Positions 187 to 7,596 of a stretch of 64,000 nt of DNA are shown here, in pieces. The DNA is from Candidatus Palauibacter polyketidifaciens (GTDB taxonomy: Bacteria > Gemmatimonadota > Gemmatimonadetes > Palauibacterales > Palauibacteraceae). The DNA lies in contig NZ_CANPVO010000038.1 of the NCBI RefSeq assembly GCF_947581785.1, positions 117,049 to 181,048 on the forward strand. Direction: 5' to 3'. The notes beneath the pieces were generated by a model that saw only the letters and a list, made by a program, of their open reading frames with translations, was not told where the DNA came from and made no database searches. A program made the position numbers and the translations under genes. The first letter of the stretch is position 1; every line of letters starts with the position of its first letter.

Positions 187-1467
187 GTGACGCGCATGAT
201 CGACCCGGTGCGATTGGCGGAGCGACTCCGCGAGGCGCGCGAGGCGCACGGCTTGAGCCAGAAGGAAGTCGCCGAGGCGCTGGACGTGCCCCGCTCGGCG
301 GTGAGCAAGATCGAGAGCGGCCGACGCGCCGTCTCGACGTTGGAACTCACGAGAATGGCTGACCTGTACGCCCTCTCCGCCTCGTTCTTCCTCTCGGACG
401 AGGGGGAACGGCGGAGCGAAGACCTGGCCCATGTCCTCCTGCGGGCCCTTCCCGAAACCCGAGAGGATCCGCAAGTCGCGCACGCCGTGCGCTCCAGCGT
501 GTTGCTGTGCCGGGAGGGTGCCTCGCTTCGGCGACTTCTGGGTCGGGCCGTTGAACCGACGGTCCCCAGTTACGCCGCACGGACCGGATCCACGAGCGAT
601 GCGATTCGGCAGGGAGAGGCCGTCGCCCGGGAGGAGCGGCGCCGCCTCGGACTCGGCGATGTTCCAATCCGGAGCGTGGCCGGACTCATCAGTGATCAAG
701 GTATCTGGGCCGCGGCCACCGGATTGCCCGACGGCCTGTCCGGGCTGTTCGTGAACCACCCGGATGTCGGTTTCGCCGTTCTGGTCAACCGGCGGCATGG
801 CGAAGCTCGACGGCGATTCTCCTACGCGCACGAGTACGCACACGTCCTGTTCGACCGCGACCGTACGATCACAACGTCGCGCCGTGACAACGCCTCCGGG
901 CGTCTGGAGACGAGAGCCAACGCCTTCGCGGCGGCATTTCTCATGCCGCCGGGCGGTGTCGCCGAGCAGCTCGAACGAATGGGCAAGGGACGCCCGAGCC
1001 GGAACGCCCAGGCCATCTTCGATGTCGCCAACGATTCCGCGATCACGGCGGAGATCCGCACCCGGCCGGGATCCCAGGAGCTCACGTACGCGGACGTGGC
1101 CGTCCTGGCGCGACATTTCGGCGTCAGCTTCGAGGCGGCGGTTTGGCGGCTCAAGAGTCTGAAACACACGTCCGCATCCGAATCCGCCGCTCTGATCGAG
1201 CAGAAGAACATTGGAAATCGGTACATCCGGATGCTGGACCGGAGCCCGCACGACGGGGCTTGGGACCCGGACGCGCCCGAAGGCGTCTCCGCCCGCGGCG
1301 TGGGGGCCGGTCACGACCGGGAGCTGCGCGGCCAACTCCTCCGCCTCGCAATCGAGGCGTTCCGCCGGGAAGCGATCTCGCGCGGACGGCTGCTCGAGAT
1401 CGGTCGGAGACTCGACATCGCCGGCGACGACATGCTCGACGTCGCGATGGCCGCCCGGCCTTGCTGA
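187..1467 (+). CDS. XRE-family HTH fused to an ImmA/IrrE (COG2856) zinc metallopeptidase domain
   Basis: The N-terminus (LSQKEVAEALDVPRSAVSKIESGRRAVSTLELTRMADLY) is a classic XRE HTH. The HEYAHVLFD segment gives the HExxH zinc-peptidase motif of the ImmA/IrrE family. 426 aa. Confidence 0.8.
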   Translation: MTRMIDPVRLAERLREAREAHGLSQKEVAEALDVPRSAVSKIESGRRAVSTLELTRMADLYALSASFFLSDEGERRSEDLAHVLLRALPETREDPQVAHAVRSSVLLCREGASLRRLLGRAVEPTVPSYAARTGSTSDAIRQGEAVAREERRRLGLGDVPIRSVAGLISDQGIWAAATGLPDGLSGLFVNHPDVGFAVLVNRRHGEARRRFSYAHEYAHVLFDRDRTITTSRRDNASGRLETRANAFAAAFLMPPGGVAEQLERMGKGRPSRNAQAIFDVANDSAITAEIRTRPGSQELTYADVAVLARHFGVSFEAAVWRLKSLKHTSASESAALIEQKNIGNRYIRMLDRSPHDGAWDPDAPEGVSARGVGAGHDRELRGQLLRLAIEAFRREAISRGRLLEIGRRLDIAGDDMLDVAMAARPC

Positions 1468-1496: not shown

Positions 1497-2414
1497 GTGG
1501 CGGACACATGCGTGCTGCTGAACTTCCTCCAGATCGACCGTATGGACCTGATCGGAGCCCATCCGGATGCGTTCATGGCCACGGACCATGTGGCAGCCGA
1601 GATCACAGACCTCGCGCAGCTCGAGCGCTACGAAGAGGCCCGCCGAGCGGGTTTCGTCGCGGAAGAGCACGTCACCCACCCGGCCGAGCTGGAGATCTTC
1701 CTTCGTCTCGAAGGTTCAGGACGCCTCGGCGCAGGAGAACGATCTGCCATCGCGGTCGCCCTGAATCGCGGCTACCGTCTCGCAACGGACGACAACAAGG
1801 CCATCAAGCGGGCGGCGCGGGAGGCGGCCGTGGCCTCGCGGGAACTCCGTTTCGTCCGCACGGAAGACATCGTGACGGAACTGATCCAGCACGGAGCGCT
1901 GACGATCGCGGCGGCCGACGAGATGCTCACCGACTGGGCGGCGAACCATCGGAGGGTGGCGCAGCGCGTCAGCGAAGGGGGACACGACATCCCGGAGCCA
2001 GTTGCCCGTCGTCGGTTCGAGCGAAGCTGGGACAATTTCGTCTCGTTGTACCGCCCCATTGCAGACGAATGGCAGGTCTACGACACTTCGAGCCGGTCCC
2101 CAATCCTGGTCGCCGCCTCGGAGCGTAACGACATCCTGCCGCTCCTTCCCAGCGGCTGGCGCATCCGAGAGTTGCCGACCGCGGTGGACGCAGACCGGCG
2201 GGACCTCTCGGACGATCCCACAAGGAGAAGCGCCATGACGGAGGACAAGAAGCAGGCTCCGGACAGATTCCCGGAGGGAGAGCCTTCGATACAGAACGTG
2301 ATGATCGCCTTGAGACAGGCGCGGGACGACGCGCTGGCGCGCGCGGCAGCCGTTAGGCGAGGGGAAGCCGAGGCCGCGCGGGCCGAGAATGCGACATCCA
2401 CCGCCGAGAACTGA
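1497..2414 (+). CDS. PIN-domain protein with a C-terminal segment resembling the tail of zeta-toxin/COG4185-type ATPases (no P-loop)
   Basis: The PIN acidic residues are in place: VVADTCVLLNF, AAEITD, GAGERSAIAVALNRGYRLATDD and RTEDIV. The C-terminal RRVAQRVSEGGHDIPEPVARRRFERSWDNF resembles the conserved tail of zeta-toxin-like ATPases; this is from memory, not a search. The ORF frame opens right at the stop of the upstream gene (TGA 1465-1467). The start is uncertain: CTG at 1464 or GTG at 1497. Confidence 0.55.
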   Translation: MADTCVLLNFLQIDRMDLIGAHPDAFMATDHVAAEITDLAQLERYEEARRAGFVAEEHVTHPAELEIFLRLEGSGRLGAGERSAIAVALNRGYRLATDDNKAIKRAAREAAVASRELRFVRTEDIVTELIQHGALTIAAADEMLTDWAANHRRVAQRVSEGGHDIPEPVARRRFERSWDNFVSLYRPIADEWQVYDTSSRSPILVAASERNDILPLLPSGWRIRELPTAVDADRRDLSDDPTRRSAMTEDKKQAPDRFPEGEPSIQNVMIALRQARDDALARAAAVRRGEAEAARAENATSTAEN

Positions 2415-2423
2415 TATGGAGCG

Positions 2424-3389
2424 ATGAGTACAGAAAACGTTGTCATCATCGGCTCGGGCCCCGCCGCCTGGACGGCGGCAATTTATGCGGCCCGGGCGAA
2501 CCTGAATCCGCTCGTGTTCGAAGGTGCGGGGAGCCGCACGATGATCCCGGGTGGGCAGCTTATGTTCACAACTGATGTGGAGAACTATCCCGGTTTCCCC
2601 GAAGGGGTTAGCGGCATCGACATGATGTTGGACTTCAAGAAGCAGGCGCTACGTTTCGACACGCGCGTGTTCACCGAGGACATCGTGGAGGTCGACTTCT
2701 CGAGCCGACCCTTCCGCCTGCGCTCGTCCGGGAAGCAGGAGGTGCTCGCGGAGACCGTGATCGTGGCCACGGGTGCCAACGCGCGCTGGCTCGGCGTGCC
2801 GGGCGAGGAGCGGCTCGCGCAGAGCGGCGGCGGGGTGTCCGCGTGCGCGGTGTGCGACGGCGCCCTGCCCGTCTTCCGGGACCAGGTCCTCGCCGTCGTG
2901 GGAGGCGGCGACAGCGCGATGGAGGAGGCGCTCTACCTCACGAAGTTCGCGAGCGAGGTGCTGCTCATCCACCGGCGCGACGAACTGCGGGCGTCGCAGA
3001 TCATGCAGGAGCGGGCCCTCGCCAGCGACAAGATCCGCTTTCTCTGGAACCGGACTGTGGAGGAGGTGTTCGGGGACGACGCGATCACCGGCCTCCGCCT
3101 TCGCGACACGGTGACGGGCGAGGCGTCGGAGGTCGAGGTGGGCGGGATGTTCGTGGCCATCGGCCACATCCCCAACACGGCGTTCCTGCAGGGCCAGGTC
3201 GACCTCAAGGAGAACGGCTACGTCGACATGCCCACGCCGTGGCGCACGGACACGAACGTGCCCGGAGTGTTCGCGGCCGGCGACGTCATGGACGACTACT
3301 ACCGGCAGGCCGTCTCGGCGGCGGGCACCGGCTGCATGGCCGCCCTCGACGCCGAACGCTTCCTCGCCCACAACGGCGCCGCCGGCTGA
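2424..3389 (+). CDS. trxB: thioredoxin-disulfide reductase
   Basis: The FAD-binding N-terminus [19 protein letters not shown], the redox-active CAVCDGA motif and GVFAAGDV are all present. 321 aa. Confidence 0.9.
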
Positions 3390-3445: not shown

Positions 3446-4975
3446 TTACCAGAAGATGATGTAGAGGACGGCGGCGCCCGCGATAACGCCTCCGGCCCAG
3501 AGTCCTGCGCGGGGAGCGGGCGTCAGATCCACTCCGTCCGCGGCCCGGGGCAGCCGGCGCGGGGCATCGAGCGGGCGCGCGCGCGTCACGAGGACGATGT
3601 AGGCGCCGATCGCGAGGAAGGTGATCGCCATGTGGTGGAGGAACGCGACCTCCGGCAGCAGCCACAGGAGGAGGCCGTAGACGGGGATCCCGAGCAACAT
3701 GCCGCCGAAGGCCGCGGCGGGCGGCGTGCGCGGCGCGAAGATGCCGAACAGGAACGCGGCCACGATCCCCGGTGAGATGAACCCCCAGAACATCTGGATG
3801 TACTCGAACACGCTCGGCGCGCGGGCCACGACCGGCGCCCACAGGCACGCCACCACGACGAGCACCCCCGTCGTCACCCGTCCCACCACCATGAGGCGCC
3901 GCGATGACGCCTCGGGCCGCAGGTGCCGCTTGTAGAGGTCCACGCTGAAGATCGTCGCCGCCGAGTTCAGCATCGAGTCGAGCGAACTCATCACGGCCCC
4001 GAACAGCGCCGCGAACATGAGGCCCGTCAGCCCGGCGGGGAGGAGTTCCCGCATCATCACGGGATAGGCCTGGTCCGGGTTCGTCACCTGATCCGCGAAC
4101 AGCTCCGCCGCCATGATCCCGGGAAAGATGATGATGAACGGGATGAACAGCTTGATGAAGCCCGCCAGGAAGAGCCCCCGCTGCCCGTCCGCCAGGCTGC
4201 GCGCCGCCAGCGTGCGCTGCGTGATGAACTGGTTCAGTCCCCAGTAGAAGATGTTGGGGATCCACAGGCCGCCGATGAAGACGGCGACCCAAGGCATCTC
4301 CGGGTGGTTCCACGGGAGGACGGTGTGGAGCTTTCCGTCCGCCGCCTCGAGGAAGGGGCCGATGCCGCCCATGGCCCGGAACCCCAGCACGGTCACGAGC
4401 ACGCCGCCGAGGAGGAGCGCCACGCCCTGGAGGAGGTCGGACCACACGACCGCTTTCAGTCCCCCGTAGATCGTGTACCCGCCCGCGAGCACGCCGATGA
4501 GCCAGGTGCCGGTCCCCGTGTCGAGGCCGAAGATCGACTCCAGGGCGAGCGCGCCCGAGTACAGCACGGTCGCGAGGGCCACGAGCACGTACGCCGCGAG
4601 GATGAACGCCGCCATCAGCGTGCGCGTACGCACGTCGTACCGGAACTCGAGATATTCCGGGATGGTGTAGATCCCCGCCGCGAGGAACCGGGGCAGGAAG
4701 AAGAGTCCGACGAGGACGAGGGTGACGGCCGCCATCCACTCGTAGCTCGCGATCGCAAGCCCGATGTCGTAGCCCCGCCCCGCCATCCCCACGAAATGCT
4801 CGGTGGAAATGTTCGAGGCGATGAGCGAGAAGCCGATCAGCCACCACGGCAGGTTGCGCCCGGCGAGGAAGTACCCGGCCGCGTCCCGCCGCCCCCGCGA
4901 GGCATACAGCGACACCCCCACGACCAGCAACAGAAAGCCCGCGAACGCCGCAACGTCGAGCGGCCGAAAGTTCAC
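3446..4975 (-). CDS. sodium:solute symporter (SSS) family transporter
   Basis: A multi-TM protein with an SSS-type N-terminus (YFLAGRNLPWWLIGFSLIASNISTEHFVGMAG). 509 aa. Confidence 0.85.
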   Translation of the reverse strand: MNFRPLDVAAFAGFLLLVVGVSLYASRGRRDAAGYFLAGRNLPWWLIGFSLIASNISTEHFVGMAGRGYDIGLAIASYEWMAAVTLVLVGLFFLPRFLAAGIYTIPEYLEFRYDVRTRTLMAAFILAAYVLVALATVLYSGALALESIFGLDTGTGTWLIGVLAGGYTIYGGLKAVVWSDLLQGVALLLGGVLVTVLGFRAMGGIGPFLEAADGKLHTVLPWNHPEMPWVAVFIGGLWIPNIFYWGLNQFITQRTLAARSLADGQRGLFLAGFIKLFIPFIIIFPGIMAAELFADQVTNPDQAYPVMMRELLPAGLTGLMFAALFGAVMSSLDSMLNSAATIFSVDLYKRHLRPEASSRRLMVVGRVTTGVLVVVACLWAPVVARAPSVFEYIQMFWGFISPGIVAAFLFGIFAPRTPPAAAFGGMLLGIPVYGLLLWLLPEVAFLHHMAITFLAIGAYIVLVTRARPLDAPRRLPRAADGVDLTPAPRAGLWAGGVIAGAAVLYIIFW

Positions 4976-4982
4976 ACTTGTC

Positions 4983-5201
4983 TCACGTCATCGCGTCGCG
5001 GAGGGTCTGCCTCGCTTCTTCGTGCCGGCTGGCGGGCACGCGGAGGACTTTTGCGGCCGCCGTCGGGCCCCAGGACACGGGTGCGAACTCCCCTTCGACC
5101 CTGAAGGGGATGTCGTCCGCCTCGAGGGCGAGCCGCGCCGCGAGGAATTCGCTCTCATCCCACGCCTCGAACACGCGGACCATGTCCTCGCTCCGTGTCA
5201 C
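4983..5201 (-). CDS. small DUF2007-like (putative signal-transducing) protein co-transcribed upstream of the SSS transporter
   Basis: 72 aa. The pattern VRVFEAWDESEFLAARLALEADDIPFRV...KVLRVPASRHEEARQTL matches the DUF2007 consensus as I recall it. It lies 8 bp upstream of the transporter start. Confidence 0.45.
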   Translation of the reverse strand: MTRSEDMVRVFEAWDESEFLAARLALEADDIPFRVEGEFAPVSWGPTAAAKVLRVPASRHEEARQTLRDAMT

Positions 5202-5211
5202 GTCGCCCCCA

Positions 5212-5682
5212 TCATGATGAAGCAGGGATCTCTTCGATGTCGGCGGTCCAGGTCACCTTGATCGCGCCCTCGAGCGAGCGGGCGGTGGGGCACTTCGCGC
5301 CGTGGCTGGCGAGCGCGCGCTCCACCGTCTCCCGGGCCTCGGCGGGGATTCGGAGCCGGTAGTGGACGATGATCTCCTCCAGCGTGGGCATGCGGTCGCG
5401 GAGGCGGTTGATCCCCTCCACTTCGGCGGCGATGTCGTCGGGGGCCAGGCGGATGCCGCGCACTTCCAGTGCGCCGTTGAGCGTGCCCAGCATTCAGGCG
5501 CCGGTCGCGGCCACCTGGTAGTCGACGGGGAGCGGCAGATCTTTCGCGTCGATCCGGTAGTGGGACTTGATGGGTCCGTGGACGCCGAAGTCGATCTCGG
5601 TCCCCTCTTCGAGGCGGGCCCGGCGATGCACGCCTCCGATCTTTTCGAGACGCGCGCGGGCAGTGTAGAACGGTTCGGACAT
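5212..5682 (-). CDS. OsmC/Ohr-family peroxidase interrupted by an in-frame TGA (5494-5496) at the position of the first catalytic Cys; selenoprotein candidate or pseudogene
   Basis: Two adjacent same-frame ORFs (5494..5754 and 5212..5493) are separated only by TGA. The joined protein carries the OsmC C-terminal motif HGAKCPTARSLEGAIKVTW. The TGA falls in the segment QVAATGA-[TGA]-MLGTLNGAL, which aligns with the OsmC first-Cys motif AAhAAC-FsMaL. AGGAGA lies 7 nt upstream of ATG 5682. Confidence 0.6.
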
Positions 5683-5778
5683 GATGTGCTCTCCTTTACG
5701 AAGCCGCCTTCCCTGTCGCATTTTCGGGCGGCGAGATTCGGGCGGGACGCGCAAACGGAACGATCAAGAGCAACCAGC

Positions 5779-7596
5779 ATGACGTCAACCCGCGACAGGA
5801 ACCGCCTTCCGGGAGGAGCGGCGGGCCGCATCGTGGCCGTGATCCTCCTGGCAGGCGGGATCGCGGCCTGCGGGCGGGGTTCGGCCGAGACGGCGGACAC
5901 GGCCCCGCCCAGCGACCTCTCGGCGCTCAGCGACCGCTTCTGGGACGCCTACCTCTCCTGGAACCCGCTGCAGGCAACCTACCTGGGAGAACACCGCCTC
6001 AGCGACCGCGTTCGCGACATCTCGCCGTCGGGCCGCAACAATCGCCGCCGCGAGGTTCGTGCCCTCACGGATGCCCTCGCAGCCATCGACCGTCCGTCGC
6101 TGCCCCCCGAGGAGCGGCTGACATTTCTCGCACTTGACCATCAGCTCTCGGCGGAAGTTGCCGAGCAGACGTGCGACCTGGAGGTGTGGGTGGTGGACCA
6201 CCGCGAGGGGTTCCAGCTCGACTTCCTCAACATCGTGGGCGCCCAGCCGCTCGAAACGCCGGTCGACGGCGAGCGCATGATCCGGCGCTGGAATGCGTTC
6301 GCGGACTATATCGACGACTACATCTCGAACCTCCGCACCGGTCTCGAGACGGGACGGGTCGCGGCACGCCCGTCGGTGAACCGCACGATCGTACAGCTCG
6401 AAGCCCTCCTCGAACGACCCGTGGAGGAATGGCCCATTTACGCCCCGGCGGGGACGCGGCTCGATGCATGGCCCGAGGGAACGCGCCACGACTTCCGGGC
6501 CGGGATCCGCGAGGCCGCCTCCGAGCGCATTCAGCCGGCGTATGTGAGACTCCGTGACTTCCTGCGCGACGAACTCTATCCACACTCGCGCACGGGCGCG
6601 GAGGTCGGACTCTCCAGCCTGCCGGGCGGCAGCGACTGCTACGAGGCGATGATCCGCACCTTCACGACGCTCGAACTGACGCCGGCGGAGATCCACGCGC
6701 GCGGCCTGGCGGAGCTGGAGAGGGTCCACGAGGAGCTGCGGACCCTTGGGCGGGAAGCTCTCGGCGCGGCCGATCTGAAAGAGCTTCAGCAGCGGCTGCG
6801 GTCGGACCCGGAGATGTACTTCCGCTGGCCGGGCGAGATCGTGCAGCAGGCGGAGGAGGCCTACGCGCGGGCGGCCCTCATCATGCCCGACTGGTTCGGC
6901 ACGCCGCCCCGGACGGAGATGGTGATCCGTCCGATCCCGCTGTACGAAGCGCCGCAGAGCCAGCTCGCATACTACCGCGAGCCCGCGCCGGATGGGTCGC
7001 GTCCCGGCACGTACTACGTGAACACGTACCGGCCCGAGATCCGGCCCAGGTATCAGGCCGACGTCCTGAGCTTTCACGAGGCGATTCCGGGGCACCACCT
7101 CCAGACCGCGATCGCCCAGGAGGTCGAGGGTCTGCCCGAGTTCCGAAAGCACCTCGGATCGGTCGCCTTCGTCGAGGGATGGGGGCTGTACGCGGAGCGG
7201 CTCGCCGATGAAATGGGTCTCTACGTGGACGACCTGAGCCGCATCGGCCTCGCCTCGTACGATGCCTGGCGGGCCAGCCGGCTCGTCGTCGACACCGGCA
7301 TCCACGCCTTCGGCTGGACGCGGGAGGAGGCGATCGACTTCGTCCGCGAGAACACGCTGCTCGCCGAAGTGAACATCGAGAACGAGGTGGACCGTTACAT
7401 CACTTCGCCCGCCCAGGCGCTCACCTACAAGCTGGGGCAGCTCGAGATCTCGCGGCTGCGCCGGGAGGCTGAGGCCAGGCTCGGGGAGGCATTCTCCATC
7501 GCGGAGTTCCACGACCGGGTGCTGGAGAACGGCGCGCTGAGCCTCCCCGCACTCGGCGACGCGATCGAGAGCTGGCTTGAGGAGACCGCCAGCTAG
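5779..7596 (+). CDS. DUF885-family lipoprotein (putative metallopeptidase-like)
   Basis: Signal peptide plus lipobox (LLAGGIAAC). The DUF885-type motif FHEAIPGHHLQ is present. ~605 aa from ATG 5779; the upstream in-frame extension to 5302 is not coding. Confidence 0.75.
   Translation: MTSTRDRNRLPGGAAGRIVAVILLAGGIAACGRGSAETADTAPPSDLSALSDRFWDAYLSWNPLQATYLGEHRLSDRVRDISPSGRNNRRREVRALTDALAAIDRPSLPPEERLTFLALDHQLSAEVAEQTCDLEVWVVDHREGFQLDFLNIVGAQPLETPVDGERMIRRWNAFADYIDDYISNLRTGLETGRVAARPSVNRTIVQLEALLERPVEEWPIYAPAGTRLDAWPEGTRHDFRAGIREAASERIQPAYVRLRDFLRDELYPHSRTGAEVGLSSLPGGSDCYEAMIRTFTTLELTPAEIHARGLAELERVHEELRTLGREALGAADLKELQQRLRSDPEMYFRWPGEIVQQAEEAYARAALIMPDWFGTPPRTEMVIRPIPLYEAPQSQLAYYREPAPDGSRPGTYYVNTYRPEIRPRYQADVLSFHEAIPGHHLQTAIAQEVEGLPEFRKHLGSVAFVEGWGLYAERLADEMGLYVDDLSRIGLASYDAWRASRLVVDTGIHAFGWTREEAIDFVRENTLLAEVNIENEVDRYITSPAQALTYKLGQLEISRLRREAEARLGEAFSIAEFHDRVLENGALSLPALGDAIESWLEETAS

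Follow-up and report, generated by a model that had tools for sequence, protein, structure and literature searches.

A predicted selenocysteine-containing member of the OsmC/Ohr superfamily in Candidatus Palauibacter polyketidifaciens

The window analysed here, a stretch of 64,000 nucleotides (nt) from contig NZ_CANPVO010000038.1 of Candidatus Palauibacter polyketidifaciens, carries on its minus strand a gene for an OsmC-family protein whose reading frame is interrupted by one TGA codon. We conclude that this is very probably a single intact gene, encoding a selenocysteine (Sec)-containing member of the OsmC/Ohr superfamily, with the UGA read as Sec. The original prediction, made from the letters of the window, had proposed this reading, and it is now supported by the conservation of the TGA among relatives, by its alignment with a catalytic cysteine (Cys), by a covarying hairpin located downstream, and by the agreement of that hairpin with the consensus for the Sec insertion sequence (SECIS) of bacteria (bSECIS).

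The interrupted reading frame and its TGA codon

From the ATG at 5682..5680 to the terminal TGA stop at 5214..5212, the minus-strand frame contains a single interruption, a TGA at 5496..5494. The coding sequence (5212..5682) therefore comprises 156 codons, including the predicted Sec codon 63 (5494..5496), plus the stop. Two open reading frames (ORFs) in the same frame, 5494..5754 and 5212..5493, represent the halves of the OsmC frame, and the earlier claim that these are contiguous, split only by the TGA and together specify an OsmC product of approximately 156 amino acids can be read directly from the sequence. When the TGA is read as an amino acid, residues 49-145 of the joined product match Pfam OsmC (PF02566) with an E-value of 2.5e-12 and 47.5 bits, against a gathering cutoff of 27.5. 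As to the extents of the two ORFs, the downstream half stands as proposed, while the upstream start at 5754 does not. The TTG at that position is a mechanical ORF start only; since the homologs begin with MSEP, which aligns to the ATG at 5682..5680, the true start is placed there. This ATG is preceded, with an 8-nt spacer, by the Shine-Dalgarno sequence AAGGAG at 5696..5691, the complete initiation region being 5680..5696 on the minus strand. The homolog alignment further revealed that some 45 residues at the N-terminus form an extension, in which the motifs FGVHGP and PLPVDY are conserved. The context of Sec63 in the predicted product is ...YQVAATGA-U-MLGTLNGALEVR.

Protein searches returned full-length homologs of 152-155 amino acids with 50-67% identity, and in 17 of 19 of these the TGA column is occupied by Cys. 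A comparison of the family profile with Thermus thermophilus OsmC (1ukk; profile E = 2e-4) placed the same column on the first active-site Cys (AAHAG-C-FSMAL), in agreement with the proposal that the TGA lies where the catalytic Cys of OsmC is found. The second active-site Cys of 1ukk (EG-C-PVS) aligns with the Cys of a KCPTA motif, which is invariant in the family and is encoded in the window by the TGC at 5290..5292 (minus strand, Cys131). The same searches recovered many Gemmatimonadota entries of 89-100 amino acids, including some from Candidatus Palauibacter, which start exactly at the Met following the TGA, as well as 85-amino-acid entries that stop just short of it.

A scan of one genome per species yielded 38 genomes that carry the gene, with identities of 56-97%. 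According to their labels the hosts are mostly Gemmatimonadota (Palauibacter, Longimicrobiales and Gemmatimonadales), with several Acidobacteriota, including a member of the Multivoradales. All 38 species representatives have TGA at the Sec column and no further internal stop. A metagenome scan added 80 loci, 77 with TGA and three with TGC. Overall, in 120 related loci from Gemmatimonadota, Acidobacteriota and Eisenbacteria-like bacteria, extending down to approximately 50% protein identity, the codon is TGA in 113, TGC (Cys) in six and GGA in one. The TGA-bearing loci derive from many assemblies and sequencing technologies, complete chromosomes among them; complete Palauibacter genomes with the gene include NZ_OZ253465.1, NZ_OZ250143.1 and OZ220691.1, and it is also present in the complete genomes NZ_OZ244907.1, NZ_OZ244149.1, OZ242312.1 and OY762926.1.

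These counts bear on the possibility that the gene is a pseudogene, or that a sequencing or assembly error has turned TGC or TGT into TGA. A single window could not exclude this, since TGA is one base removed from TGC, and single-base differences of this kind do occur: locus L044 (366-833 of a 906-nt Logan contig, SRR34348099) has GGA (Gly) in place of TGA. Yet 113 independent loci of the 120, from varied assemblies and technologies, keep the TGA, and the protein is strongly conserved on either side of it, with no frameshifts or further stops. On account of this retention we regard error and pseudogene formation as ruled out for practical purposes, this being the least probable of the explanations considered. 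At L044 the hairpin is perfectly preserved, with compensatory changes in two pairs (GCGUGC/GCACGC); either Sec was lost there very recently, or one base of this low-coverage contig is in error.

A different explanation is that of a split gene, in which the UGA terminates translation, the adjacent AUG restarts it through UGA-AUG coupling, and chains of 62 and 93 amino acids assemble into an OsmC-like fold that lacks the first catalytic residue. The codon after the TGA is indeed ATG in 35 of 39 sequences, and gene callers annotate a 93-amino-acid product from that ATG. However, a Leu codon takes its place in four genome loci (CTA or CTG) and in L045 (CTG), where no such restart is possible, and the Met is equally conserved in the single-chain Cys homologs (CMLGTL), so that it is a structural residue and not a start signal. 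A plain stop would also be expected to drift among TAA, TAG and TGA, whereas TGA is found in 113 loci. The terminal stop codons show what such drift looks like: in the 39 genes they are TGA in 22, TAG in 11 and TAA in six, whereas all 39 have TGA as the internal codon. It follows that TGA still functions as a stop in these genomes, including that of the window, whose gene ends in TGA, and that the internal codon is constrained to TGA. Moreover, a split gene would forfeit the catalytic residue, and would leave unexplained both the covarying hairpin and the adjacency to selA described below. We therefore consider it very unlikely, and prefer the reading of the TGA as Sec in one continuous chain.

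The downstream hairpin and the Cys-containing orthologs

The candidate SECIS is an apical stem-loop at 5458..5474 on the minus strand, with a 5' arm GCGCAC (5474..5469), a loop UGGAA (5468..5464) and a 3' arm GUGCGC (5463..5458). The stem begins 19 nt after the UGA and the loop 25 nt after it, and the U and A of the loop can themselves pair, closing a GGA triloop. The folding energy is -11.3 kcal/mol.

The importance of this element rests upon comparison, the folding energy of the single sequence being unremarkable. For the six stem pairs of 101 distinct Sec-form sequences, 605 of the 606 cells are paired, and 34 of the cells, in three pairs, are compensatory, that is, altered on both sides (G-C to C-G 13 times, A-U to G-C 17 times and C-G to U-A three times). 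None of 500 column shuffles matched the covariation score, and every slid register collapsed. RNAalifold independently gave the same helix, together with a U-A or U-G pair closing the GGA triloop. The loop invariably begins with UGG, even where the encoded Glu has become Asp or Ala. Codon usage is similarly restricted: in 80 non-redundant genes the codons of the hairpin are GGC in 67 of 68 cases, CTG in 79 of 79 and GTG in 68 of 68. The hairpin codons have a mean synonymous entropy of 0.42 bits, versus 1.46 bits for 28 other conserved codons with four- or sixfold degeneracy, all of which are at or above 1.08 (one-sided Mann-Whitney, p = 4e-4).

Published criteria for a bSECIS call for a loop of 3-9 nt on a stem of 4-16 base pairs (bp), a G at loop position 1 or 2, a distance from UGA to loop of 16-37 nt and a minimum free energy of -7.5 kcal/mol or lower (PMC13188914 Fig. 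2). The loop is typically N1-G-[G|U]-N-N2, in which N1 pairs with N2 (PMC13188914). All four of the criteria agree with the window hairpin, which has a 5-nt loop U-G-G-A-A/G (the U pairing with A or G), a stem of 6-7 bp, a distance of 25 nt and an energy of -11.3 kcal/mol. The SECIS-like GC hairpin with a GG loop that had been noticed 19 nt past the TGA is thus located exactly, covaries, and conforms to the published description.

A natural contrast is provided by the Cys-containing orthologs of the clade, which have the length and motifs of the Sec forms, at 50-72% identity, but have TGC for TGA and a hairpin that is degraded or without the GG loop. They are a minority, with six of the 120 DNA loci (L041-L043, L046, L051 and L094; protein examples are P0023 and P0002-P0011). 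The stems at these six loci are mostly weakened, with 4-6 of six pairs retained, and five of the six have lost the GG of the loop, with no G in its first two positions. At L042 and L046 the peptide G-A-L-E-V-R is kept, but is specified through CTC, GTC and CGG, with the result that the stem is broken and the loop reads UCGAR. A distance tree scatters the Cys forms among the Sec forms at five or more points, each Cys form being 64-72% identical to its closest Sec form. Such interleaving is what is usually seen where Sec and Cys are exchanged at a redox-active site. Two further features of this region were observed. L042, L043 and L046 possess an extra Cys two residues before the catalytic one (AAT-C-G-C-MLG, a CxC motif) that the Sec forms (AATGG-U) do not have, and a few Sec forms carry a Cys at position -4 (ACTAG-U).

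Selenocysteine machinery and alternative decoding of the UGA

Several results weigh against decoding of the UGA as Sec. Taken alone, the energy of the hairpin is at the level of chance for a sequence of 69% GC (z = 0.34), 121 of 200 shuffles folding equally well. Rfam gave no match at gathering thresholds over the window, and a permissive scan of 5400-5540 yielded only chance-level matches. Searches of the 64-kb window, and of the 20-kb flanks around the gene in the 38 genome loci, found no selA, selB, selD or tRNA-Sec, and tblastn with E. coli SelA, SelB and SelD returned no match in the window. About 0.87 Mb of related DNA likewise yielded no second selenoprotein gene. Finally, the linkage to selA described in the next paragraph belongs to a different, Eisenbacteria-like lineage and not to the organism of the window. 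Two sets of candidates that emerged from these searches were discarded. SelB-like matches in L036 and L025 were traced to the IF-2 GTPase domain, encoded in rimP-nusA-infB operons, and a scan of coding frames in the window and the 38 genome loci for a TGA followed by a UGG-loop hairpin returned noise, the lone protein-like candidate (L034:2406) being antisense to the gene for a [2Fe-2S] subunit.

In the Eisenbacteria-like lineage, so designated since the closest named relatives of its SelA are in Candidatus Eisenbacteria, selA and the OsmC gene are neighbours. Contig L101 has a complete selA (47-1504; TIGR00474, 520 bits against a cutoff of 268) directly upstream of a TGA-containing OsmC gene, with which it shares an ATGA overlap. 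In L126, 2 nt separate selA (1931-3352) from the OsmC gene that follows it, whose codon 64 is TGA and which has the canonical hairpin. The 82-kb contig of P0128 has selA followed by abutting OsmC ORFs of 63 and 92 amino acids, and in L116 and L104 the C-terminus of selA lies at the contig edge, just upstream of the OsmC gene. The two genes are apparently co-transcribed in this lineage. If so, it would be consistent with the OsmC gene being a principal, or even the sole, client of the Sec machinery there. A DinB-family gene was also observed upstream of selA in two of the selA-OsmC contigs.

The UGA might instead be read through without Sec, by near-cognate insertion of Trp or Cys or through a lineage-wide reassignment of UGA, with the hairpin acting as a mere stimulator. 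In favour of this, no Sec machinery was found in the 64 kb of the window, and one source has translated the codon as Trp: protein P0021 (L045, JGI Ga0643532_0110110), an exception to Cys among the 19 full-length homologs, is deposited with Trp at the Sec column, where the DNA has TGA. Evidently a genetic code with TGA as a Trp codon had been applied to the contig at that source. The use of UGA as the normal stop of the window gene and of 22 of 39 orthologs, however, indicates that the code is not reassigned. The codon coincides with the catalytic Cys, whose replacement by Trp or Gly would abolish activity, and the interchange of Sec and Cys at one redox-active column is a classic signature of selenoproteins. 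The hairpin, moreover, conforms to the bSECIS consensus of the SelB type, down to the N1-G-G-N-N2 loop, and selA is in an operon with the OsmC gene in a related lineage. Readthrough of this type is in our judgement unlikely, although somewhat less so than a split gene or a sequence error, and decoding as Sec is the reading that we retain.

Family relationships, predicted chemistry and gene neighbourhood

OsmC and Ohr are two-Cys hydroperoxide reductases. From general knowledge of these enzymes we take Sec63 of the window protein to be the peroxidatic residue and Cys131 to be the resolving one. The OsmC proteins (E. coli 1qwi/1nye and Thermus 1ukk) and Ohr have a common fold, and their two catalytic positions align with those of the window clade; the window protein differs from them in having Sec for the first Cys, in its remote sequence similarity and in its N-terminal extension of about 45 residues. 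An AlphaFold2 model was obtained for the Cys ortholog P0023, not for the window protein itself, with a mean predicted local distance difference test score (pLDDT) of 86.5. In a Foldseek comparison of this model with the PDB, the top 50 matches were all OsmC/Ohr proteins, with a probability of 1.00 and template modelling (TM) scores of 0.5-0.6. The window protein does not reach the curated cutoffs of TIGR03562 (OsmC), TIGR03561 (Ohr) or TIGR03563 (SACOL1771), scoring 11.9 versus 85.8 bits with the first and 14.3 versus 166 bits with the last. By these sequence comparisons it is a separate clade of the OsmC/Ohr superfamily.

During translation, codon 63 would be decoded as Sec while the mRNA hairpin (a GC stem of 6-7 bp with a UGGAR loop, 19 nt past the UGA) would serve as the bacterial SECIS, bringing SelB-GTP with Sec-tRNA(Sec) to the ribosome as the UGA occupies the A site. 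By analogy with OsmC and Ohr, from which we infer that the product is a hydroperoxide reductase, the selenolate of Sec63 would attack the hydroperoxide to give a selenenic acid. Cys131 would then convert this to a selenenylsulfide, which a thiol reductant would reduce.

OsmC-like selenoproteins are themselves not new. They were described in 2005 in the selenoproteome of the Sargasso Sea, with a UxxT motif and assignment to COG1765 (PMC1088965), are listed in reviews (PMC9312934, PMC13188914), and have a model in NCBIfam, NF041052, 'OsmC-related (seleno)protein'. The statement in the original prediction that an OsmC-like Sec protein would be a rarely documented case must therefore be restricted: the kind has been known since 2005, and what holds is that the window protein belongs to a divergent clade outside the curated model. 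That this clade lies outside NF041052 is the only novelty here. With a cutoff of 95 bits, the model gives 157.4 bits for the Sargasso protein AACY01145085, 21.1 for the window protein and 25.6 for P0023, and all 18 clade members tested match it weakly, below the cutoff (best E = 6.3e-08).

The known protein (Sargasso Sea and Global Ocean Sampling data, with AACY01145085 as the example; PMC1088965, PMC2398784, PMC13188914) shares with that of the window the superfamily PF02566 and the Sec column, position 63 of the window protein corresponding to position 40 of the Sargasso protein by BLASTP, with 22% identity over 69 residues. It also possesses a second conserved Cys near the C-terminus and a SECIS hairpin within the coding sequence just past the UGA, with a G-first apical loop. 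The Sec motif, on the other hand, is U-M-L-G-T (UxxxT) in the window clade and U-L-L-T (UxxT) in the Sargasso protein, and the second Cys stands in KCPTA and QGCFAE, respectively. The SECIS of the window has a 19-nt spacer, a 6-bp GC stem and a UGGAR loop, whereas that of the Sargasso protein has a 13-nt spacer, a 7-bp UGAAGCG/CGCUUCA stem and a GUA loop. The hosts differ as well, being high-GC Gemmatimonadota, Acidobacteriota and Eisenbacteria-like bacteria in the one case and AT-rich marine plankton in the other. Sec-peroxiredoxin, bacterial glutathione peroxidase and AhpD-like selenoproteins likewise have Sec for a redox-active Cys and a bSECIS directly 3' of the UGA (PMC1088965; PMC13188914), but their folds are unrelated to that of the window protein.

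Taken more broadly, the data would fit a second OsmC clade in which Sec is dominant (approximately 94% of the sampled loci), uncatalogued as far as we checked and missed by the NCBIfam model, which is spread over soil and marine Gemmatimonadota, Acidobacteriota and Eisenbacteria-like bacteria, with a SECIS (GCGCAC-UGGAR-GUGCGC) that is near-invariant across phyla and with selA co-transcribed in some lineages. We offer this wider description tentatively, and with considerably less assurance than the assignment of the window gene. A search of the accessible literature revealed no paper on the use of Sec in Palauibacterales or Gemmatimonadota.

Because the clade scores below the NF041052 cutoff, its gene is listed by NCBI, RefSeq and IMG in dozens of Gemmatimonadota genomes as a 93-amino-acid "OsmC family protein" or a hypothetical fragment. 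A dedicated model for the clade would correct many records and flag the lineages concerned as users of Sec. If the assignment is correct, the gene implies that part of the peroxide defence of widespread sponge, sediment and soil bacteria depends upon selenium. The near-invariant SECIS, with its natural compensatory variants, may offer a system for the study of SelB-SECIS recognition outside the Proteobacteria, and the natural Sec/Cys pairs one for comparing catalysis by the two residues in the OsmC fold. Our understanding of Sec decoding is unchanged by the gene, which is mechanistically unsurprising.

The neighbourhood of the gene was also inspected. A thioredoxin-disulfide reductase (2424..3389, plus strand; TIGR01292, 378 bits against a cutoff of 343) is encoded about 2 kb away on the opposite strand, past a sodium:solute symporter (3446..4975). 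In Palauibacter-like genomes the reductase gene keeps within 2-7 kb of the OsmC gene, but in genomes further removed it does not. The enzyme may supply reductant, or the proximity may be coincidental; being on the opposite strand and syntenic only in Palauibacter-like genomes, it was not counted as part of the system. Directly downstream of the OsmC gene, a short way upstream of the symporter, is a conserved ORF of 72 amino acids (4983..5201, minus strand) which had no match in Pfam or NCBIfam and is syntenic in most Palauibacter-like loci. In L010, L013 and P0086 the C-terminus of OsmC is fused in frame to this ORF (KCPT|FRVEGEF), with loss of the last OsmC strand.

Divergent from the OsmC gene is that for a DUF885-family protein with a lipoprotein-like N-terminus (5782..7596, plus strand), and this adjacency is kept further out than that of the other neighbours, in L019-L024 at 52-72% identity. 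More distant members, of both Sec and Cys form (L025, L036 and the contig of P0003), have the OsmC gene directly upstream of rimP-nusA-infB, and the genomic context is thus not conserved across the clade. Elsewhere in the window, an ORF at 187..1467 (plus strand) combines HTH_3 at the N-terminus with a Peptidase_M78 (ImmA/IrrE-like) domain, an arrangement typical of stress- or prophage-associated regulator proteases. Lastly, locus L008 (VXNP01000066.1), labelled as Gammaproteobacteria bin SB0662_bin_11, equals L009 (Candidatus Palauibacter irciniicola) in gene order and in percent identities to the window proteins, and is probably a mis-binned Palauibacter contig.

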